Below, piece by piece: positions 43,701 to 56,159 of a DNA stretch of 64,000 bases. A model generated the notes under the pieces. The model was given only the letters and a program-made list of their open reading frames with translations, searched no databases and was not told the DNA's origin. Location: positions 10,284 to 74,283 of the forward strand of contig CAYGYR010000004.1 of assembly GCA_964354285.1 (NCBI GenBank), given 5' to 3'. Both the position numbers and the translations under genes were made by a program. The DNA is from an uncultured Methanosarcinales archaeon (GTDB lineage: Archaea > Nanobdellota > Nanobdellia > Woesearchaeales > ARS49). Positions within the stretch are counted from its first letter, which is position 1, and the number at the start of each line of letters is the position of its first letter.

Positions 43701-44747
43701 TCACTCGCTCGCATAAAGATTTCTTGTCAATCTATGGATATCAACAATGTCAGAGAGCATTGCCTTCAGCTTTGCGACTATCTGGGCAATCTCTATTGTT
43801 TTGTTCTTAAGGAAGTATGCATCAAGAGAATCAGCTATCTCCCCCCTGGTTAGCATGACAGAGCATTCTGATTTCTTGGTATAATACAAAGTCATTGTTG
43901 TGCAGTATTCCTGGTAAATCCTCTCAATCAATTTTTTTAATCCAGGAAGGTCTGCATTCTTTTTCTTCTTCACAATACTCAGGATTCTCGCAATCCTTTT
44001 TGCCTGGTCTGCAACCTTCTCAATCCTTATCTGAAGCTCCCAGTAGCCAAGTGCCTCAAGATTAGAGATATGCAGCGCCTGCTTCACAGACGGATCTGTG
44101 AAAGCAGTCTTGAGTATCTTGAGAATCAGGAAGGTTATCCTGTTCACATCAAAATCCCGGTTGACTATAAGCTCGTGAATATCATCCCCCGTGGTCATGT
44201 TAATCGTATCAAGAATCATAGACCTCGTTATGTTATCAATGCGCCTTGTGAGCTTGTCAAGCGAAACTGTCTTTATGTCAATGAAGCTGTCTGCAACAAG
44301 CTTTGTCGATGACTCGTCCACAATCTCGAGCGCAAACAAGCCTGCAATCTCTTTTTTTATAAAATCAAGATGCTTTGGAATGTCTTTTCCCTTGAGAACA
44401 ATGATGCTGTAAGGATTAAGATACGCAGAGACAAGCTCCCTGTGGATGCAGTGCTGCTCTTTATTATCTACATTTATGACAATTTCCTTCTGCTGGACAG
44501 TAGATGCCTGGTATTTTGTTGATACGACAAGCTCATTATCCCCTTTTTCCTCTATGTAGAGCTTGTCACCTTTCTTGAGCTTGTTCCTTTCAATCCAGTC
44601 CTTTGGAATCGCAACTGTGTAAGATGCCTTTCCTGATTTTACTATTGTCCTGACGTCCATATTCTCAGGGAGAGGCGGCTTGCTTATAAAACTTTCGTTC
44701 TGGACTGTATAAAACGTGTTTTCTTCGCTCTCTAACGTGTTTTCCAT
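43701..44747 (-). CDS. AbrB/SpoVT-PhoU fusion regulator (archaeal phosphate-uptake-regulator type)
   Basis: ASYTVAIPKDWIERNKLKKGDKLYIEE AbrB-type N-domain followed by two PhoU-like helical repeats. Confidence 0.8.
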   Translation of the reverse strand: MENTLESEENTFYTVQNESFISKPPLPENMDVRTIVKSGKASYTVAIPKDWIERNKLKKGDKLYIEEKGDNELVVSTKYQASTVQQKEIVINVDNKEQHCIHRELVSAYLNPYSIIVLKGKDIPKHLDFIKKEIAGLFALEIVDESSTKLVADSFIDIKTVSLDKLTRRIDNITRSMILDTINMTTGDDIHELIVNRDFDVNRITFLILKILKTAFTDPSVKQALHISNLEALGYWELQIRIEKVADQAKRIARILSIVKKKKNADLPGLKKLIERIYQEYCTTMTLYYTKKSECSVMLTRGEIADSLDAYFLKNKTIEIAQIVAKLKAMLSDIVDIHRLTRNLYASE

Positions 44748-44780
44748 TTTTTGATAGCTTTCGCCCTTTTTGCCGCTTTC

Positions 44781-45530
44781 TTAAAAAAAAAGATCGTCTT
44801 TCACGCTCTGCAGGATTGTATAAACCACTGCTTTTTTTGCCTGCCCTTTTGAAAGGTATTCAAGTGCAGTCTCCTGTGTATTCTTGTTTGCATTCGCAAA
44901 ATAGATATCTGTGGCAAGAAGATACTTCAGGTCACGGATATTCCTTGCATTAATCGCAGTTTCCTTGATCTTGTTATACTTGAACAATGAAAGGTATTTC
45001 TCAGTAACAAGCTCGCAAATCGGGCTTGGCTTCCTGAACTCATAAAATGCATCATCCCGCACCTGCGAACGATGGTTGCTCTGCGTCATCATCTCAAAAA
45101 GCGCATCTTTTCCTGTATCTTCAGGAGCTGCGACCATACTCTCCATCGCAGTCTGCATAAGCTGGAGGGCAAAATACTGGCTGAAGCGCTTCATGCTCAT
45201 CTTTTCAATGTCATATTTCTCTTTCCTGCAGCCAGTTATCTCAACCAGAACATCAAAAAGAATTGTCTTCTTGATTGAGTCATCACTTGTGTTGGCATCA
45301 ATTTTTGCGCGCCTTATAACGTCAACATCAACAAAAGTGTCAAGCAGGCAGGATTCAACAGGGTCAAGGGCGCCATAGTAGTGGGCTTTTGGCGAATAAT
45401 TCTGCCCGATAATGTATTTTACCTTGTCCTCGTATGTCCTAAAGCGCTCCTGCTTCTCACGGGCAGCCTGCTTTTCCTCATGCGTTTTGGCTTCTTCTGA
45501 AACCAGCATGCATAAATCAACTTCTTTCAT
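44781..45530 (-). CDS. alpha-helical hypothetical protein, last gene of the Ubl/E2/JAB/E1 operon
   Basis: ATG at 45530 follows the E1 stop as TAAGATG with AAGGTGGT SD; ORF-track start 45548 also possible; no motif recognised. Confidence 0.55.
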   Translation of the reverse strand: MKEVDLCMLVSEEAKTHEEKQAAREKQERFRTYEDKVKYIIGQNYSPKAHYYGALDPVESCLLDTFVDVDVIRRAKIDANTSDDSIKKTILFDVLVEITGCRKEKYDIEKMSMKRFSQYFALQLMQTAMESMVAAPEDTGKDALFEMMTQSNHRSQVRDDAFYEFRKPSPICELVTEKYLSLFKYNKIKETAINARNIRDLKYLLATDIYFANANKNTQETALEYLSKGQAKKAVVYTILQSVKDDLFF

Positions 45531-45531
45531 C

Positions 45532-46980
45532 TTAACCACCTTTTGCATAGAGCTTTCCCATCTTCCTCAGCCATGCCGTGTAAAAGTCCTTTGGCTTTGT
45601 ATGGCAGTCACATGCCCCTCTTGAGCCAAGCATTCCAATGCGCACAGGTTCTGTGCTAATGTACTTCAAAATACCCCTGATTGGCTCCCCATATTTGTGG
45701 CTCTCAAGCACTGCGCCTGCCTCATTCACAATCATTCCGCCAACAATCTGGTTGCTTATGATGACACTCGGCTCTGCAGCATGAATGCAGCGCTGAGGCT
45801 TGAAGTTCTGCAGGGCAAGATCATCGATAGTGAGCTGGCACTGCAGGCAGCTTGTCTTTCCAGGGACATACACAGTTGCCTGCCCTGACTTGAAATCAGT
45901 GCCGCCGCTGATCAATGGAATCTGCATGGTGCGTGCATAATAATTCAGCAGTGCCCTTGTCTTGAAATTGTCAACACTATCTATGATTAAAGCAGGCCTG
46001 TTTGCTTTCAGGTATTTGCCAAAATTCGTGCCTACACGATTAAAGCTATACTCCCACTCCATGCCTGGATTGATTTTCTTAAGCTTTTCAACAAGCGCCT
46101 CTGCCTTGCGCTTTCCAACAGAGTCATAGAACAGCACCTGCCTGTTAAGGTTGGTCTCCTCAACAATATCATCATCAAAGATTGTTACCTTGCTTGCGCC
46201 GCGGATTGCGAGCCCAAGCCCAACAAAATTCCCAAGCGCGCCAGCACCAACAAGCACTACATTGCCATTGTTCTTCTGCGTTTCAGCAGGCATCTCCATA
46301 TTGTTTGCATAGCCTGTCCTTTCCTTTGAGAGCAGATTATATGAAACAATCCTGTCAAGAGGCCTGTCATTCAATGGCATGATGAGCTTTCTTGCCTCGT
46401 CAGCAACCAGGCCGCCAATCACCATGCTTGTCGCAGCGCTCTGCTCTTTTGCCCTGTATTCAGGAAAAAGATACTTTTCATCAAGCCTGCCAAGCGAAAC
46501 AGCAATCTCGCTGCTTTCAGCAGAGCTGGCTGCTGATATCACAGGCTTTCCGATTCTCTGCCCGTAATCAAGCGCGATGAGCTTTGAGCACGGGTCATTT
46601 GTGCAGTCAATAATCAGGTCAAGGCCGCCGAGCAGGCTTGCCTGGCTTGCGTAATCAAAGCTGATGCTAATTCCTTTCACATCAACTGTGGGGTTTATCT
46701 TCTTCAGCATGTCCTCAAGAGATTTTGCCTTGCTGCTGCCTTTTCTTGACCAGGAGCAAAGAAACTCCTCTCTGTTCTTAGGGTCTGCCCTGCCAACGTC
46801 GTATATCTCAATGTGGCCAAAGCCAAGGGCAGTGAGGGGAAGCGCAACAAACTGCGCAAGAGAGCCTGACCCAATTATGCCAACCCTTGCATTCTCAAGC
46901 AGGGCCTGGTTCCAGCCCTCAATCCTGTTCTGCCTGTCATACCTTGCGATTTTGCTTATTTCTGGGAAGATTGCTTGCAT
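45532..46980 (-). CDS. E1-like activating enzyme with tandem ThiF/MoeB Rossmann domains
   Basis: Domain 1: RYDRQ..VGIIGSGSLAQ but KNREE instead of NLNRQ. Domain 2: VLVGAGALGNFVG..FDDDIVEETNLNRQ..IDSVDNFKTR..CLQC..RCIHAAEP..CDCH. GGAGGTGGAGGA directly before the ATG. Confidence 0.88.
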   Translation of the reverse strand: MQAIFPEISKIARYDRQNRIEGWNQALLENARVGIIGSGSLAQFVALPLTALGFGHIEIYDVGRADPKNREEFLCSWSRKGSSKAKSLEDMLKKINPTVDVKGISISFDYASQASLLGGLDLIIDCTNDPCSKLIALDYGQRIGKPVISAASSAESSEIAVSLGRLDEKYLFPEYRAKEQSAATSMVIGGLVADEARKLIMPLNDRPLDRIVSYNLLSKERTGYANNMEMPAETQKNNGNVVLVGAGALGNFVGLGLAIRGASKVTIFDDDIVEETNLNRQVLFYDSVGKRKAEALVEKLKKINPGMEWEYSFNRVGTNFGKYLKANRPALIIDSVDNFKTRALLNYYARTMQIPLISGGTDFKSGQATVYVPGKTSCLQCQLTIDDLALQNFKPQRCIHAAEPSVIISNQIVGGMIVNEAGAVLESHKYGEPIRGILKYISTEPVRIGMLGSRGACDCHTKPKDFYTAWLRKMGKLYAKGG

Positions 46981-49895
46981 TCCTCCACCTCCGCAATTGC
47001 TTTTGCGAATTTTTCAAGAACAGCATCAGGGTCTTCAGCGCCATTGCTGCGGTACGCATTCACGAAATCCACCAGGAACTCCCTCAGCTGCTGCTTTTTT
47101 CCAGGCGCAATAAAGCAGGTCAAGTCAAGCAGAAGCTGGTTTGCAATCATTTTCTTGTCTTTTTCTGTATAAAAGTAGTCAGTGCTCCATTCCAAGTCTG
47201 ATTTGAGCTCCCCTGCTGACTTAAGCGCACTGTCAAAGGCCACAAACTTTTCAGGCCCTATTATGTCTTCAAGGACGCTTCCTGCCCATGAGCAATATTT
47301 CCTCTTGCATGGCTTCTTGTCAAAGCACCATCCTTCCATTGTGTAATCAGATACTGCTTTGGCAAATGCATTCGCAGCCATTGAATCGCGGGCAAATTCA
47401 GTCATCTGGCCATAAAACTCTGGAATCTTCTCTGGCTTGAAGCCGGCAATGAATTCAAGGAACAGCCTGTCCTTTATCTCTGCCTCAGATGGCTTGCCCT
47501 CGCTGCACCAGTCAAACCGCTTCCTGACTTCATCTTCTATCGCAACATTTTCCTCCAGCACTTTTTTTGTGCCGTCAGCCAGTGCCTTTTTAAAAGGCTT
47601 CTTGATATCATCCTCTTTCTTGCCTGCCAGCTTTATGAGGAAGCTGCCAAGCCATGCAGCATATTCCCCGCCATTGAACATGTATTCTTTTGCTGACTGG
47701 AAGAAAGAATCAAAAATCCCGCCATACACCTTTTCAAATATCTCCTTGCGCTCTTTCTCTGTCGGATCAAAGCTTGGCTTTGCAGGAACAAATTTGTGCT
47801 CATAGCTGCTGTGTTTTGCCGCAATATGCAGGTCTTCTGTAACTGCTCCTGGCATTGCTGCCCTTGGGCAATCATAAAAATCCCAGTCAACCGCGTGTTT
47901 TGCTTCTTTTTCATTGCCCTCTGCTTCTTTCTTGAAATATTTCTCAAGAACAGAATCTTTGTCTTTTTCTTTAAGGAACTCTGCCACAAACTGCCTGAAT
48001 TCAGCGCTATTCAAGAGCTCAGCAGATGCCTTCTCAAGCATCTTGTCCCTCCCCCAGCTATTATAGCTGGGCCTTTTAAGACTGGATTTCTTGAATGTTT
48101 TCAGGTTGCACCTGGCTGCACGCAGGAAACTATCGCCGCGGCCAGTATATCCGTGCTTGAAATCCTGGAATGTGTCGACAGCCCACTCGTTATACTGGTA
48201 TGGCTTCTTGTCTGCATAGCTGTCTTCTATGTACGCAGTGAATGCATCAAGAAAGTGCTCTGCAAGCCCAGAAGCGTTTTCATTTTGCTTTGTGATATCT
48301 TTCCTGACAAGCGCAACAAGAGGGTCATCGCTGCCATTCTTTTCTGGCTTTTCTTTAATTATCCTTACAGGAATCTTCACAGCACTATCTTTCTTTTTAT
48401 CTTCAGCATCTGCTTTTTCTGATGGCTTTGCTTCTTTTTTTTCAGGGGGCTCTTCATTTTCTTCAGTATCTTCTATTTTTGCGCTTTTGTATTCATTTAA
48501 TGCATTGATGGCCTTCACTTTTTCTTTTCCATCAATAAATCCCTCTACGAGCTGGCAGAGTGTCTGGCTTTTTGACAGCTCTTCAGCAAATCTGGGGACA
48601 AATTTGCGCCTGTGCTTCTCTTTGGAGTAGCTTATGACGAAATATGTTTTTGCGCTGTTTGCGAAATTAATTGATTCAACAAAATCTCTCTGGTCTATTA
48701 TGTAATTCGTGAAGACCCTGTTAAGCCACTTCCGTGAGGCTTCTTTCTGGCTATTGTCTGTGATATACTCTTTTGCAGCTTCATAGAACTGCTCTGCAAG
48801 CTTGCTGAAATCAGAAGGCTTTTCTTTCTCTTCAGCAGACTTCTTTGCTTCTTCTTCTTTTTCTTCTTCTGCTTTCTGCTCCTCTTTCTTTTCCAGCTCT
48901 TCCTGCTTTTTTCTTTCTTCCTCTGCATGCTTCTTGTCTTCCTCTACTTTCTTCTCATATGCTTTTTTCTTATGCTCCTTCAGGCTGTTTAGCTCTTTCT
49001 CAATCTTTTCATTGATTGAGTCAACTGCATCAGGCTTTTTGCTGTCTCCGCAAAACCAGCCGACAACATAATCAAAAAAGTCAAACCAGCCCCAGCGCCT
49101 TGCATCCTTCGCCTTGGAGACTGCGATTTTTGTCACAGGCGCGTATCTCCCGACCTTCAGTTTCTTATAGACTTCGTCTTCCATCAGCTTTGCATCAATG
49201 CTGACATCAGTCTCAATTTCACTTAGCATGAAGCCCGCTGCTTTTTTTGGATTCTTAAGAACCCACTTGTTGTCAGGCCCAAGCTCTTTTGCCTGCACTT
49301 CAGTATAGACATCGCCCAGTATATTAACGACAACAGAGTATGCCCATGAGCTGGAATTCTTTTTCTTCACATCAGCATCTTTCAGGTGCTCTGCGTTTAT
49401 TGCATAGCCTCCCAGGTCAAGCTTTCCGTTTTTTACAAGGTCCTCAAGCTTCACGTCTTCGTATTCTGTCTTTAAAGTATTTGGTGCAACAGAGTGCACG
49501 ACTGTCTCGAAATTATTAACATCTGTGCCTGAATGGAACACGCCAAAGCGTGCGTGAGAATGCCACCATCCAACAATCTTGTAGCCTTTTGGATCAACTG
49601 CTTCAGCAGCCCTTACAACATCCTCACCATCAATTTTACAGTACCCGCCTGAATATACCTGGTTGTCTGCAAGATATGCGTCAACAACAAGGTCTGTATC
49701 ATCATCTTTCATTGCAAGCAAAAAGCCATAGCACTCATTTGCAGAGCCAGTTATCCTCTCAACAAGCCTCGCGTATGTCTTTGCCTTTAGCAATGCGCCA
49801 GGAGTTATGTTCACTTTCGCAGGCCCTGCCTCTTTTTTAGCTGCCTCCTTTATGGAATACGGCTTTGAGTTCAATACTTCATCAAGATTAAACAT
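46956..49895 (-). CDS. giant JAB/MPN+ (JAMM) metalloprotease-domain protein
   Basis: ANECYGFLLA (Glu) and HSHARFGVFHSGTD (HxHx7Sx2D) at 49521-49562; K/E-rich linker; about 600-aa helical C-terminal region; TAATG junction with the E2-like gene, GGAGGTG SD. Confidence 0.85.
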   Translation of the reverse strand: MFNLDEVLNSKPYSIKEAAKKEAGPAKVNITPGALLKAKTYARLVERITGSANECYGFLLAMKDDDTDLVVDAYLADNQVYSGGYCKIDGEDVVRAAEAVDPKGYKIVGWWHSHARFGVFHSGTDVNNFETVVHSVAPNTLKTEYEDVKLEDLVKNGKLDLGGYAINAEHLKDADVKKKNSSSWAYSVVVNILGDVYTEVQAKELGPDNKWVLKNPKKAAGFMLSEIETDVSIDAKLMEDEVYKKLKVGRYAPVTKIAVSKAKDARRWGWFDFFDYVVGWFCGDSKKPDAVDSINEKIEKELNSLKEHKKKAYEKKVEEDKKHAEEERKKQEELEKKEEQKAEEEKEEEAKKSAEEKEKPSDFSKLAEQFYEAAKEYITDNSQKEASRKWLNRVFTNYIIDQRDFVESINFANSAKTYFVISYSKEKHRRKFVPRFAEELSKSQTLCQLVEGFIDGKEKVKAINALNEYKSAKIEDTEENEEPPEKKEAKPSEKADAEDKKKDSAVKIPVRIIKEKPEKNGSDDPLVALVRKDITKQNENASGLAEHFLDAFTAYIEDSYADKKPYQYNEWAVDTFQDFKHGYTGRGDSFLRAARCNLKTFKKSSLKRPSYNSWGRDKMLEKASAELLNSAEFRQFVAEFLKEKDKDSVLEKYFKKEAEGNEKEAKHAVDWDFYDCPRAAMPGAVTEDLHIAAKHSSYEHKFVPAKPSFDPTEKERKEIFEKVYGGIFDSFFQSAKEYMFNGGEYAAWLGSFLIKLAGKKEDDIKKPFKKALADGTKKVLEENVAIEDEVRKRFDWCSEGKPSEAEIKDRLFLEFIAGFKPEKIPEFYGQMTEFARDSMAANAFAKAVSDYTMEGWCFDKKPCKRKYCSWAGSVLEDIIGPEKFVAFDSALKSAGELKSDLEWSTDYFYTEKDKKMIANQLLLDLTCFIAPGKKQQLREFLVDFVNAYRSNGAEDPDAVLEKFAKAIAEVEECKQSSQK

Positions 49896-51367
49896 TAATC
49901 CCACCTCCGTTGTTCTTGGTTCTTGCGTATCTTGACAATATTTTTATTAAAGACAGGAATGTTGTTTTTTTGGATGCGCTCTTCTGAAATCACGTAATCC
50001 CCGAAATGATAATCATCAAGATTTGCCATTGGCGTATGATGTGACATGTCGAAATAGCCCTGCAGAACCACTCCTTTTGCATCAGAAAGAAAAGTCAGCA
50101 CGCTCTCTAATGAAGGAAGCCTTCTTGTGCGCTCATAATCATAGTTTCCTAAGCAAATACGCCCGTTAACTGCATTTAAGCCAGTAAAAGGATGCGGGTA
50201 ATTTCCAAGGACAATTGGGTCCTGCACATAAATTCCATTCCCATCATTTACCAATTGAACAGCAATCTTTCCTTTTTTGAACAGGTAATACTTGCCGTTA
50301 TGCGGGCTCTGAAGCGCATACTGCTCAGGCGTCTCGACATAGACATAATACTTGTTATCCTTTTTCAGGAATCCCACGCCTGATTTTTCATAATTATTTG
50401 ACTGAAGAATCTCCCTTAATGCCTGCCTTTCTTTTTGAGCTTCTGTAAGCGCAGCTGACTGGACGCCATTATTCCTTAATGCATCTATCTTGAACTTCTT
50501 TGCAAGCCTGCGCACATAGCTCTGGTATATTTCAGGCATCTGCTGGTGGGACCGCTGAAAGCTGAACTTTTGGGCGCCTATGAATACGGAAACGCCGTTC
50601 TGCTCCTTTGCTTCTGGAACAAGGTCATAGACACGCCCCCCGAAAATGGCAATAGAACCATGCAAAAGGCTTCCAAAAACAGAGCTGTCTGTGCTGTCCT
50701 CCTCTTCGAGCAGTGTTTTTCCAGGGGCATACTCCTGCAGGATGCTGATAATCTGGTTCTCTGTTTGTTTGCTTCTGGCAGGCATGTAATTAACATTGCC
50801 ATATTTTGCTCTTAAGAGATCCTCGATATTTCCTGCTTGCTGCGGGGCCTTTTCTGCCTGCTGCGCACAAAGCTCAGAGTCTAAATACTCTTTCTCAACT
50901 TTTCTTATCAACTTTTCAATGATTGCATTGTTTTCGCGTATGTCAATGTCAGAAACAGCGTCGCTAAGCGCGGCCTTAGGCGCTTTTTCCTGCGCGCCTG
51001 CTTTCACGCCGAGCAGATCCTTTATCTCCTTCTCCTCATATGCCCGCGTCAGCGCAGGAAGAACGTCTCTCACAATAAAAGAAAGAACTGCATTCTCTTC
51101 AAGAGCTCTTTTTGCAGCATCATTCTCCTTTACTTCCTTCTTGATTGTTGCTTCCAGAAAAGACTTCTGAAAATCCGCTATTTCCTGCTTTGCGCGTTCG
51201 AGAAAAATATTTTCATGAGTCCCAATGTCATCAAGCTTTGCCAGGCTCAGGCGCTTGCTGTAAGCCACAAGGCACCCGTCTTCCTGCCTCTCCCCAACAA
51301 CATAGATTTTCCCGTTGTGGAATATCACAGGATCCCACTCAAGCAAAAAATACGGCTTTAGCTCCAT
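49895..51367 (-). CDS. E2/UBC-like protein with large N-terminal extension
   Basis: C-terminal YPHPFTGLNAVNGRICLGN (50147-50194) resembles the HPN-x8-11-G-x-I-C-L E2 active-site signature; GGAGGG SD. Confidence 0.55.
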   Translation of the reverse strand: MELKPYFLLEWDPVIFHNGKIYVVGERQEDGCLVAYSKRLSLAKLDDIGTHENIFLERAKQEIADFQKSFLEATIKKEVKENDAAKRALEENAVLSFIVRDVLPALTRAYEEKEIKDLLGVKAGAQEKAPKAALSDAVSDIDIRENNAIIEKLIRKVEKEYLDSELCAQQAEKAPQQAGNIEDLLRAKYGNVNYMPARSKQTENQIISILQEYAPGKTLLEEEDSTDSSVFGSLLHGSIAIFGGRVYDLVPEAKEQNGVSVFIGAQKFSFQRSHQQMPEIYQSYVRRLAKKFKIDALRNNGVQSAALTEAQKERQALREILQSNNYEKSGVGFLKKDNKYYVYVETPEQYALQSPHNGKYYLFKKGKIAVQLVNDGNGIYVQDPIVLGNYPHPFTGLNAVNGRICLGNYDYERTRRLPSLESVLTFLSDAKGVVLQGYFDMSHHTPMANLDDYHFGDYVISEERIQKNNIPVFNKNIVKIRKNQEQRRWD

Positions 51368-51380
51368 ATAGTTCCCTCCA

Positions 51381-51409
51381 AAAAAAATTAAGCCCCAAAA
51401 TTAAGGGGC
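51381..51409 (-). terminator. hairpin plus T8 run between the Ubl and E2 genes (attenuator candidate)
   Basis: Minus strand GCCCC-TTAATTTT-GGGGC immediately after the Ubl stop, then TTAATTTTTTTT. Confidence 0.4.
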
Positions 51410-51808
51410 CTAAATTTTGTACTCCAGACCTCCTTCCTGGACACTTGCGACTGCTATCTCAGCAAGGCCATACTGCACCTTGTTGCCGTCCTCAAGATCC
51501 TTGTTTTGAGGCTTGATGTATTTCTCAAGAATCTCTTCTTTTATCTTCTCTGCAGTCACAGAGTCAACCCCATTAAGCATTATGACGTATTTTCCTGTCT
51601 TTTTCATCTCCTGCTTGATGGAGTCTGCAATGCTCCTCTCCTTGTCGTCCTTCAGCTGGTCTGGCCTTGTCGCATACTTTATTGCGTCGTCCAGCGACTT
51701 CTTTTCCAGCTCAGGGGGAATTCTCCTAACGATTGCTTCCTTTGACATTCCGCCCCTGACACTAATTATCTGCGGTATATCGACCGCAACTGCTTCTTCT
51801 TCTGGCAT
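51410..51808 (-). CDS. ubiquitin-like modifier candidate (Gly-Gly plus 5-residue tail)
   Basis: 132 aa from ATG at 51808 (GGAGGT SD, 7-nt spacer); ends ...ASVQEGG-LEYKI; C-terminal about 55 aa have a beta-grasp-like alternation; first gene of the operon. Confidence 0.5.
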   Translation of the reverse strand: MPEEEAVAVDIPQIISVRGGMSKEAIVRRIPPELEKKSLDDAIKYATRPDQLKDDKERSIADSIKQEMKKTGKYVIMLNGVDSVTAEKIKEEILEKYIKPQNKDLEDGNKVQYGLAEIAVASVQEGGLEYKI

Positions 51809-51904
51809 TTTGGTTACCTCCAAACATTTTTTATTTTTGAGGGCTCACAAATGTGTGTTACCTCCCAGAGCTAAAGCTATATGTCTTAGCCCTGAATTAT
51901 TTTT

Positions 51905-52068
51905 TTGAAGAGCCCGAAGATGTTGCGGCTTCAACGCACAAATTTTAAATACTTGAAAAACCCAAATATCTGCGTTGAAACCTGCCCCGGTTTCTTCAGG
52001 TTCCTCCTGGCCCCTGGCTAGGAAGGAACTTTCTTTTCGCGTAACTAAAAAGCTATTTGCTTTTTAGT
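51905..52068 (-). promoter_or_regulatory. GC-elevated multi-hairpin intergenic region upstream of the Ubl operon
   Basis: 10-bp perfect hairpin 52044-52068; 52000-52029 stem; GAAACC/GGTTTC 51977-51994 overlapping the 9-bp pair TTCAACGCA/TGCGTTGAA (51930-38 / 51971-79). Confidence 0.35.
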
Positions 52069-52976: not shown

Positions 52977-53978
52977 TCATCCAATTTGATGCTCGCTTCC
53001 TTCTTTTGCAAACTCTACGCTAAGGCAGCAGTGGTTTCTTCCATCCATTCTTTGATAGAGATACTCTTTTGCCCTTTTCTCGAGGTCTTTTACTATCTCA
53101 TCTGTGCTTGTTGGGTCATGGTGGGTGAAGATTATTTTCTTCACTCCTGCTTCGAGGGCAATGTCTATTCCTTTCTCGTAAGTCGAATGGCCCCAGCCTT
53201 TCTTTTTCTCATAAATCTCTGGAGTGTACTGGCCGTCATAGATTAAAATGTCAGCTCCTCTGGCCCAATCTATGAGCTTCTTGTCATTTCCTTCTGTCAC
53301 AAGCGATGCATTGCTGTCATGCTCATAATCTGTTGCAAAAACAACTGCATTGTCTTTTTCAGCTATCTTGTAGCAAAAGACTCCGTCTGGATGATTCATC
53401 CTTTTGTAGCTTACCTCAACTCCATTGCTTACCTTTACTCCTTCTGCAATGTCCTTGAAGCAGAGCTCTGCTCCCATCTGCTTTATTTCAACAGGGAAGT
53501 ATGGCTTTGTCTGCTGGTACTGGAACATTGCTTTTGCCTTGTTCATCTCTCCGTTCTTGTTAGTTATGATTGCAGTCTCTTTTGTGAGCCTGTCTGTGAG
53601 GTCTCCTTTTGTTATTCTTCTTGTTTCAACACCGTCCTGCTTTCTCTGGACTCTCTCAAGGTCTTCTTTTGTCACATCTGCATCTCCTGAGTAGACATCC
53701 AGCTTGTTTCCAGGAATGTATGCTGGAGTGAAAAAAGGAAATCCCTGGACATGATCCCAGTGCTTGTGGCTCAGGAAGAGCTTTGCATCAAGTGTCTTGC
53801 CTGCATACCTTTTCATAAGGTCTGCTCCTAGCTCTGTTATTCCTGTTCCTGCATCAAAGATATACTCGTCTCCTTCGCCAGATATCACTTCCAGGCAGGT
53901 TGTGTTTCCGCCATACTCAATAGTGCTCTTTCCTGGCTTTGGAATTGATCCTCTTGTTCCCCAAAATTTTATTTTCAT
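52977..53978 (-). CDS. MBL-fold metallo-hydrolase
   Basis: LSHKHWDHVQG (HxHxDH), downstream His/Asp ligands (FTHHD); GGTGATGA SD. Confidence 0.85.
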   Translation of the reverse strand: MKIKFWGTRGSIPKPGKSTIEYGGNTTCLEVISGEGDEYIFDAGTGITELGADLMKRYAGKTLDAKLFLSHKHWDHVQGFPFFTPAYIPGNKLDVYSGDADVTKEDLERVQRKQDGVETRRITKGDLTDRLTKETAIITNKNGEMNKAKAMFQYQQTKPYFPVEIKQMGAELCFKDIAEGVKVSNGVEVSYKRMNHPDGVFCYKIAEKDNAVVFATDYEHDSNASLVTEGNDKKLIDWARGADILIYDGQYTPEIYEKKKGWGHSTYEKGIDIALEAGVKKIIFTHHDPTSTDEIVKDLEKRAKEYLYQRMDGRNHCCLSVEFAKEGSEHQIG

Positions 53979-55205: not shown

Positions 55206-56159
55206 TTATTTAATTTTTGCCGAAATAGCCTCTGGAAAATATGCATATCTTGCAAGCGGATAAAGATAATCCCGCAGTATTAATAACCTGCTTGTGATGA
55301 TTGCATCTGGAAAGCCGCCTTTGCGCAGTATGTTTTTAATTGGCTCTTTCAATGATTGAACCCTGCACTTGTATTTGTAAAACGCTTCAAGACAGGATTT
55401 GTTTTTGTAAAGCGCATAACTATGCTCAATCAATTCAACAATCTGCTGGTATATTTTCAAAGTTTCAGGCTTGAGTCTTATGTTTTGTTTAACACCGACA
55501 AGCTCCATGCAAATACTTTTTAGCTCAAAATTCATGTGAGCTAAACTTCTAATAATAGAGTATGTGGAGGTTATTGAATAATATGAAGATATTCCTTGTT
55601 TATCGGCATACCCTCTTTTGTTCAGTATTCTGAGGCATAAATATCCGAATTTAACAGTGATTTCAAAAACCGTGCTCAGCCCATCTAATTTCTGATAATC
55701 CCCTGCCTTAATTATTTCAAAGCTTTCCTTGGCAAAGGTAATTACGCTCATATAAATTTTATTAATGAATCTGTCCAGATCTTCTTCATATTCCTCGGCA
55801 ATGTTTTTTATCACGCAATGCCTTGGGCCCTGTTCAACAGTCACAAATCCTAAGAAACTTTGCGCTAATGCCTCGTTAATCTTGGTAAGAACCGCAGGGT
55901 TTTCAAATGTTATGTACAGTTCATCATATCCTGCAATATACGGCCTAGTCAGTATCCTTGAAAGAAAATATTCTGCATCTTTAATGTGAATCTCAAGCTT
56001 GTTGTAACTTTTTTCTGTTTTTGCATTTATTATCAGTTGCCTACCATTTTCTGTGACTTCAATCTCTTCACCCTTATGCAGATTCAACTGTTTTGCCCAC
56101 TTTTTTGGTAAAGATACCATTAATGTAGACGGACCTATTTTAGCAATTTTTCTCTTCAA
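55206..56159 (-). CDS. AbrB/SpoVT-PhoU fusion regulator, second copy
   Basis: KIGPSTLMVSLPKKWAKQLNLHKGEEIEV AbrB N-domain plus PhoU-like helices; TTG start after GGGGGT. Confidence 0.8.
   Translation of the reverse strand: MKRKIAKIGPSTLMVSLPKKWAKQLNLHKGEEIEVTENGRQLIINAKTEKSYNKLEIHIKDAEYFLSRILTRPYIAGYDELYITFENPAVLTKINEALAQSFLGFVTVEQGPRHCVIKNIAEEYEEDLDRFINKIYMSVITFAKESFEIIKAGDYQKLDGLSTVFEITVKFGYLCLRILNKRGYADKQGISSYYSITSTYSIIRSLAHMNFELKSICMELVGVKQNIRLKPETLKIYQQIVELIEHSYALYKNKSCLEAFYKYKCRVQSLKEPIKNILRKGGFPDAIITSRLLILRDYLYPLARYAYFPEAISAKIK

Follow-up and report, generated by a model that had tools for sequence, protein, structure and literature searches.

A predicted minimal single-chain E1 enzyme in a candidate protein-tagging operon of a Woesearchaeota (DPANN) archaeon

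The gene at positions 45532-46980 on the minus strand of the window, as we call the whole 64,000-nucleotide stretch of contig CAYGYR010000004.1 analysed here, very probably encodes a minimal single-chain activating enzyme (E1) for a ubiquitin-like (Ubl) modifier, which would run the tagging mechanism of its operon in a Woesearchaeota (DPANN) archaeon. Both the sequence and the predicted structure point to an inactive adenylation domain (IAD, residues ~1-215) fused to an active adenylation domain (AAD, residues ~238-482), the two forming a pseudo-dimer of the ThiF type. Five minus-strand genes, most of which overlap their neighbours, follow one another in the same direction, with that of the E1 in fourth place; the others encode a candidate Ubl modifier precursor, a candidate thioester carrier of 490 amino acids (aa), a JAMM/MPN+ protein and a 255-aa protein.

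The E1 reading frame begins with ATG and encodes 482 aa. A preliminary description of the gene had left its strand unstated, and the same positions read on the plus strand contain many stops. The division of one chain into IAD, linker and AAD is based on the open reading frame, Pfam, AlphaFold2 and Foldseek. Pfam ThiF is matched in two separate stretches (E = 2.6e-58), and an alignment of one half with the other shows 22% identity in ~206 columns (E = 6e-11), a likeness that at the sequence level is far above chance. The IAD (residues 1-215; 46336-46980, minus strand) carries RYDRQ at residues 13-17, GSGSLAQ at 37-43 and DVGRADPKNREE at 61-72. The inter-domain linker (residues 216-237; 46270-46335, minus strand) includes a near-invariant R221, and the zone around it (200-240) varies in length from 30 to 73 residues across the family. 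The AAD (residues 238-482; 45535-46269, minus strand) carries GAGALG at 245-250, FDDDIVEETNLNRQ at 268-281 and DSVDNFKTR at 334-342, and hence the GxGxxG, DxD and NLNRQ motifs together with K292, D337 and R342. Three cysteine motifs follow, of which CLQC (378-381) and CDCH (457-460) supply a Zn-type Cys4 set and QRCIHAAEP (396-404) holds Cys398, the candidate catalytic cysteine on a short crossover loop, whose codon was checked at 45787-45789 on the minus strand. We collected 624 relatives of this protein at E<=1e-5. Among the best 120 listed, the non-fragments are all two-domain proteins of roughly 430-640 aa, and the annotations, where a lineage is named, are Woesearchaeota, Pacearchaeota or Nanoarchaeota.

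The residues expected of a working adenylation site were counted in an alignment of the E1 and 109 relatives (34-82% identity; 110 sequences in all). In the AAD, G245, G247, G250, D269, N277, R280, Q281, K292, D337 and R342 are each invariant, as is Cys398, and D271 is present in 109 sequences. The Zn-type cysteines C378, C381, C457 and C459 are kept in 109, 105, 109 and 107 of the sequences, respectively. The counterparts of the AAD ligands in the IAD were placed through the internal alignment of the two halves and through alignment to Uba4 and MoeB. The second Asp of the AAD, D271, corresponds to G63, a variable position (G in 33, A in 24 and E in 13 of the 110). The ATP ligands R280 and Q281 correspond to E72 (E in 45 and G in 37, that is, E or G in 82/110) and F73 (91/110), and the Mg ligand D337 to N128 (100/110). 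The RYxRQ motif of the IAD is preserved, with R13 in 108, R16 in 109 and Q17 in 109 sequences. In MoeB-type dimers and canonical E1s this motif donates an arginine to the active site of the partner, and from its conservation we infer a contact between an IAD arginine and the active site of the AAD. The preliminary description had proposed a two-domain E1 whose N-terminal half lacks the nucleotide/Mg motif and whose C-terminal half has the intact set. Each motif that it listed lies at the residue number given, within two ThiF stretches; family-wide, G63, E72, F73 and N128 occupy the ligand positions of the IAD, and the AAD ligands show little or no variation. ATP/Mg ligands have thus been lost from the N-terminal half, and the interpretation stands. 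The RxRQ motif, the full AAD set and Cys398 are all retained in bacterial two-domain relatives as well. Most of these bacterial relatives (loci L018-L043 of those that we fetched) are without the four Zn-binding cysteines seen in most archaeal ones.

An AlphaFold2 model of the E1, built from the 110-sequence alignment, has a mean predicted local distance difference test score (pLDDT) of 93.6 and a predicted template modelling score (pTM) of 0.94. The pLDDT falls below 50 only at residues 1-4 and at 397-400, the Cys398 loop, which is consistent with a mobile loop around Cys398 in the model; a block of lower pLDDT (75) marks the linker at 231-240. When the model was compared with PDB by Foldseek, the best 50 matches were all single-chain eukaryotic E1s. 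UBA7 was matched with E = 1e-22 and a query-normalised template modelling (TM) score of 0.73, and UBA1 and UBA6 with scores of 0.65-0.68 over ~578 columns. One domain makes up about half of the query and could reach a score of ~0.5 at most; both halves therefore superpose simultaneously, in the IAD/AAD arrangement. The two halves are thus predicted to pack as one rigid unit, an intramolecular pseudo-dimer of the ThiF type, and this structure prediction bears out what the preliminary description had expected of the fold.

The E1 is reduced to these two domains. The crossover loop, measured from the CxxC pair to PSV, spans 22-28 residues with exactly one Cys in all 110 members, and no CYS/SCCH domain is inserted in the loop of any of them. 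The E1 has no UFD, since only 23 residues, with one helix at 464-479 in the model, remain past the second Zn pair; nor has it an FCCH domain, as nothing is inserted within the IAD. The candidate catalytic cysteine sits on the short crossover loop itself, with no domain inserted to hold it, and the same is true of the catalytic cysteine of UBA5, ThiF and ATG7; PMC11601596 cites Cys250 of UBA5 in this position. UBA5 and ATG7, however, are homodimers of active domains, whereas the E1 here is an IAD-AAD fusion. Searched against PDB, the profile of the E1 family matches UBA1 (1e-32), SAE2 (4e-31), MoeB (6e-31), UBA6 (7e-31) and ThiF (3e-29), next UBA3, MccB, TcdA, Uba4 and UBA5, and then Cap2 (7e-19) and BubCD (3e-13). 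The profile of the N-terminal half alone finds MoeB (1e-24), Uba4 and ThiF (to 5e-20) as its best PDB matches, but the eukaryotic inactive subunits NAE1 and SAE1 only at 1e-9. Because the N-terminal half is nearer to MoeB, Uba4 and ThiF than to NAE1 and SAE1, the IAD-AAD duplication may have arisen independently of that in eukaryotic E1s.

The substrate of such an enzyme may be encoded by the first gene of the operon (51410-51823, minus strand), a candidate Ubl modifier precursor of 137 aa that ends in VQEGG (Gly131-Gly132) followed by a LEYKI tail. In the 31 relatives of this protein from related loci the C-terminal QEGG never varies and is followed by 0-10 residues that do, and the gene always adjoins a gene of the 490-aa family in these loci. 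By analogy, a GG followed by a variable tail would mark a modifier precursor that a JAMM protease trims. A protein of this kind is encoded just upstream of the E1 (982 aa; 46956-49904, minus strand; overlapping the E1 start by 25 nucleotides). Its N-terminal protease domain matches Pfam Prok-JAB (E = 3.4e-8; 33.8 bits against a cut-off of 25) and JAB (E = 6e-5), and the metal site, an HSHx7SxxD motif read from the sequence, is complete (E57, H115, H117, S125 and D128). The ~840 residues past the protease domain match no family and are K/E-rich at about 300-365, and no internal repeats were detected by BLAST in this C-terminal extension. The JAB protein is 264-288 aa long in most bacterial loci, as against 982 aa in the window.

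The 490-aa protein (49895-51367, minus strand) lies between the modifier and the JAMM protein. An exhaustive search of 1.84 billion cluster representatives found 371 representatives of its family at E<=1e-3, while word-indexed searches with the single sequence or a profile gave only 8-9 close relatives. When 106 diverse members are aligned, no residue other than Cys405 is invariant. HPF at 392-394 lies ahead of it, forming an HPx(8-12)xIC context, and a long helix comes after it; no conserved His occurs after it in the 106-sequence alignment. In the AlphaFold2 model the C-terminal domain mostly has a pLDDT of 94-98, and its elements run in the order helix, beta-sheet, HPx loop with the Cys, and helices, which is the order of ubiquitin-conjugating (UBC) enzymes. 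The protein belongs to no PADLOC family. By motif, position and conservation it is a candidate thioester carrier resembling a conjugating enzyme (E2).

We favour a tagging mechanism for the operon, each step of which has a precedent in bacterial BilABCD (PMC10557695) or in the pro-ubiquitin and Rpn11 of Caldiarchaeum (PMC5654768). In the Bil system the Ubl protein (BilA) is made with a tail after a conserved Gly and trimmed by a JAB peptidase (BilC; PMC10557695), and in Caldiarchaeum the tail after the GG of pro-ubiquitin is cut by the JAMM protease Rpn11 (PMC5654768). Here, the JAMM protease would cut the LEYKI tail off the 137-aa modifier and expose Gly131-Gly132. The AAD would then bind ATP-Mg and adenylate the terminal Gly, with an IAD arginine (R13 or R16) completing its active site in trans, and Cys398 on the short mobile crossover loop would accept the modifier as a thioester. 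From there the modifier would move to Cys405 of the 490-aa protein and on to target lysines. The JAMM protease may also undo conjugation, and in related operons the conjugates are probably acted on by AAA+ ATPases (see below). The system may serve in defence against mobile elements or in proteostasis and regulation.

Several points weigh against this scheme. Its evidence is all computational, and it is from a predicted structure that we take both the pseudo-dimer and the placement of the IAD arginine. The glycine loop of the IAD is partly retained (G37 in 110/110 and G39 in 68/110), and this remnant may allow some residual nucleotide binding. The modifier has no detectable similarity to known Ubl proteins, either by profile search of PDB or by hhalign comparison with ubiquitin-type and ThiS/MoaD-type sets, and we infer a beta-grasp fold for it. 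For the 490-aa protein, Foldseek returned no match with E<0.001 in PDB or BFVD. Its best PDB match was a chain of the FTS-Hook3-FHIP1B complex (E = 0.32), which may be that of FTS, an E2 variant. None of 100 members of the 490-aa family belongs to a Pfam family, and hhalign against eight UBC sequences placed HPF..IC on HPN..IC with a probability of 0.25%. The comparison with BilD drawn below is one with published descriptions rather than a direct alignment of sequences or structures.

The uncertain fold of the 490-aa protein leaves some room for conjugation without an E2, in the manner of UbaA and the SAMP proteins, whereby the E1 alone would activate and conjugate the modifier and the 490-aa protein would serve as a substrate adaptor, as a target or in the manner of an E3. 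SAMP proteins of archaea are conjugated without an E2, Foldseek, hhalign and Pfam did not confirm an E2 fold, and the Cys398 loop is like that of UBA5 and ThiF and unlike a mobile CYS domain made for reaching an E2. We nevertheless consider this reading unlikely: the one residue invariant among the 106 diverse relatives of the 490-aa protein is a cysteine, its HPx(8-12)xIC context and long helix follow the UBC order, and the gene is strictly linked to those of the E1 and the modifier in ~40 loci.

The MoeB, ThiF and Uba4 proteins among the nearest sequence relatives of both halves, and a modifier ending in GG as sulfur carriers do, would also fit a sulfur-carrier system, in which the E1 adenylates a carrier like MoaD, ThiS or Urm1 and yields a thiocarboxylate for cofactor or tRNA thiolation with no tagging. 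Such a system is quite improbable here. The modifier has a tail that needs removal and a JAMM protease encoded alongside it, and the Cys protein, plus AAA+ ATPases in the relatives, belongs to the module. Pfam revealed neither a rhodanese domain nor a sulfurtransferase among the operon proteins, there are no adjacent molybdenum cofactor or thiamine genes, and a Woesearchaeota relative has a separate conventional ThiF with ThiI near the same operon. An adenylating enzyme for ribosomally synthesised and post-translationally modified peptides (MccB/PaaA-like), acting on the C-terminus of a small precursor, is hardly credible, for although MccB is the best single-sequence PDB match of the C-terminal half (E = 7e-18) and PaaA also appears, UBA1, SAE2, MoeB, UBA6 and ThiF all rank above MccB with the family profile, a degenerate ThiF domain stands in place of an N-terminal peptide-clamp domain, the small protein has 120-180 aa and a GG end rather than being a short peptide ending in Asn, and there are no transporter or immunity genes.

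Read as a tagging system, the operon is closest in layout to BilABCD. Both have an IAD-AAD enzyme with a Zn Cys4 site and an IAD arginine that here would complete the active site, lack UFD and FCCH, and follow the order Ubl (here a candidate), E2 (here a candidate), JAB and E1. BilD of the Type I/II BilABCD systems was shown in 2023/24 to have an IAD-AAD-CYS architecture in which Arg9 of the IAD completes the active site (PMC10557695), and BilD has neither UFD nor FCCH, while its Zn Cys4 site is formed by the crossover loop together with the C-terminus (PMC10557695, PMC11601596). The E1 family described here resembles Bil in every feature testable in this work, yet it fails the tests of Bil membership. 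BilD has a CYS domain of ~80 residues, alpha-helical, in the crossover loop where the E1 here has a 22-28-residue loop with a Cys. The host here is an archaeon, AAA+ ATPases occur in related operons, and the candidate E2 has no conserved His after its Cys, in all of which the system differs from BilABCD. The Bil models of PADLOC match neither the modifier nor the Cys protein even at E<=10, and BilC matches the JAB protein marginally (E = 0.0029; 15 bits). No BilD model is among the 25 best PADLOC matches listed for the E1, which are all Cap2 models; fragments of the E1 used as queries against PADLOC found only Cap2 models or nothing. BilD is likewise absent from the 60 PDB sequence matches and the 50 Foldseek matches listed for the E1. 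A tblastn search of plasmids returned only single-domain MoeB/ThiF genes.

These comparisons modify two statements of the preliminary description. That the prokaryotic ThiF, MoeB and UbaA enzymes are mostly single-domain homodimers held until 2023, but BilD is now known; since a bacterial IAD-AAD E1 has already been found, the novelty of the E1 is below what had been implied. The characterisation of the inactive-active fusion as UBA1-like is sound in that the arrangement matches UBA1 and UBA7, but BilD shows that it is not exclusive to eukaryotes; the likeness does not extend to the CYS/SCCH, FCCH and UFD domains, which are missing, nor to the N-terminal half, which is nearer to MoeB and ThiF than to eukaryotic IADs. 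With UBA1, UBA6, UBA7, NAE1-UBA3 and SAE1-SAE2 the E1 shares an IAD/AAD pseudo-dimer with a single active site, whereas it has none of those added domains and 482 aa as against ~1000. The E1 has the same fold as MoeB, ThiF, Uba4 and archaeal UbaA, with the same ATP/Mg motifs in the AAD and a Zn site of the CxxC...CxxC type. Those enzymes, in contrast, are homodimers with two active sites, while here a tandem duplication has left a dead and a live domain joined for good in the same chain; the operon, with its JAMM protease and Cys protein, also sets it apart from MoeB, ThiF and UbaA.

Other prokaryotic Ubl-type modules that combine an E1 domain with a JAB peptidase are Bub (6E/DUF6527) and Cap2/Cap3 of the CBASS defence systems. 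Cap2 models are the best PADLOC matches of the E1 (E ~1e-26). Cap2 is an E2-E1 fusion homodimer acting on CD-NTase, and an identity with Cap2 was rejected on account of this architecture. The E1 and E2 of Bub have no Cys (Tyr and Ser instead), are homodimers and require a DUF6527 protein (PMC11601596). Unlike these, the E1 and the 490-aa protein have invariant C398 and C405, and Pfam found no DUF6527 in the operon proteins; an identity with Bub was therefore rejected too. The operons of Caldiarchaeum and Asgard archaea (Ub, E1-like, E2-like, small RING and Rpn11) are, like this one, archaeal, with a tailed pro-modifier and a JAMM protease. They encode a recognisable ubiquitin, a UBC-type E2 and a RING E3, whereas the modifier and the Cys protein here match no known family and no RING protein is encoded in the window operon.

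About 40 loci, in DPANN archaea as well as in several bacterial phyla, hold the set of Ubl candidate, Cys protein, JAB protein and E1. The order GG protein, Cys protein, JAB, E1 is found in the DPANN loci L001-L004, L008, L009, L011, L013, L015, L017 and L023. A distant version occurs in metagenome-assembled genomes of Desulfobacterales, Syntrophobacteria, Thermoflexales, Gemmatimonadaceae, Acidithiobacillales and Acidobacteriota, in the order E1, GG protein, Cys protein, ~145-aa protein, ClpB-D2-like AAA+ ATPase and JAB, or a permutation of it. In some DPANN loci, too, an AAA+ gene lies within the operon or next to it; none is present in the window. The ClpB-D2-like AAA+ ATPases are ~370-500 aa long (L019:13631-14761, L023:5078-6193, L009:12209-13723, L013:12246-13610 and L015:11912-13027), and classic AAA ATPases of 514-542 aa are encoded at L003:4255-5883 and L008:3193-4737. 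The conserved ~145-aa protein (L019:13049-13480) belongs to no Pfam family; in the bacterial operons its gene separates that of the Cys protein from that of the AAA+ ATPase, and 19 relatives of it occur among the loci that we fetched. One archaeal locus (L007:1-11815) has four Cys-protein paralogues and two JAB genes around a single E1. In L003/L004 and L006 a second Cys-protein paralogue lies 3' of the E1, where the window has the unrelated 255-aa gene. The Woesearchaeota relative represented by L001/L002 encodes a single-domain ThiF (356 aa) beside ThiI (990-2754), ~8 kb upstream of the E1 operon; both kinds of E1 therefore coexist. We found no description of the operon in DPANN or other archaea in the literature searched, and it is missing from the 2006 survey of Ub-like systems in prokaryotes. 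The operon is conserved and apparently undescribed.

On a bolder reading, which we consider less likely than not, the operon would be a distinct and undescribed prokaryotic protein-tagging system common to DPANN archaea, Desulfobacterota and other bacteria. No IAD-AAD enzyme known would then be simpler than its E1, a MoeB-like domain duplicated in tandem whose catalytic Cys has stayed on the crossover loop; the thioester carrier and the modifier would be structurally new families; and the frequent coupling to an AAA+ unfoldase would give the system a ubiquitin/segregase-like logic outside eukaryotes. The recurrent AAA+ neighbours suggest that tagged proteins are passed to an unfoldase. How the eukaryotic E1s arose, with a dead domain, a live domain and the added CYS and UFD, is a standing question about the evolution of ubiquitin signalling, and if the bolder reading is true, the E1 would be a living intermediate between the homodimeric sulfur-carrier E1s and the canonical ubiquitin E1s. 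Bacteria already have the IAD-AAD-CYS form in BilD, and the family here would represent the IAD-AAD step without CYS. Since the family spans several bacterial phyla and archaea whose genomes are very small, phylogeny and structure can be used to test in which order these inventions arose. The E1 family is more than a new member of Bil: its E1 is the simplest of the IAD-AAD type to have been described, and it is found in archaea, in a conserved module and with partners that match no known family. For biochemistry, the operon would offer a compact tagging system of four to five proteins.

The last gene of the operon, that of the 255-aa protein (44781-45548, minus strand), has a start that overlaps the E1 stop by 17 nucleotides. 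Neither Pfam nor PADLOC matched the protein, and L005 and, with a weaker match, L011 are the only loci in which relatives were found. The genes that come next downstream, on this strand too, are one for an AbrB/MazE-type and PhoU-like protein (43701-44747; Pfam MazE_antitoxin, E = 2.6e-8) and one for a DUF2087 protein. Homologues of the AbrB/MazE and PhoU-like protein adjoin the operon in L001/L002, L015 and L023, and this protein may be a regulator of the operon. A second AbrB/MazE and PhoU-like protein is encoded in the window at 55206-56159 on the minus strand. Directly upstream of the operon is a gene for a protein of the metallo-beta-lactamase fold (52977-53978, minus strand), which has sub-threshold likeness only to RNase Z and cyclic-nucleotide phosphodiesterase. 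PADLOC recognised no defence genes adjoining the operon.

The window is cellular DNA, encoding a DnaJ, a DEAD-box helicase and an Lhr-type helicase, the last of which falls in the same 90% identity cluster as a protein annotated Candidatus Woesearchaeota archaeon. A mobile or viral origin was considered and is unsupported, with no tRNA or RNA family matches in the window and no relatives on viral contigs. The G+C content is 0.42-0.49 across the operon (window positions 44000-52000), with its maximum in the E1 gene, and 0.32-0.41 in the flanks; the raised value may reflect horizontal acquisition or gene-specific composition.

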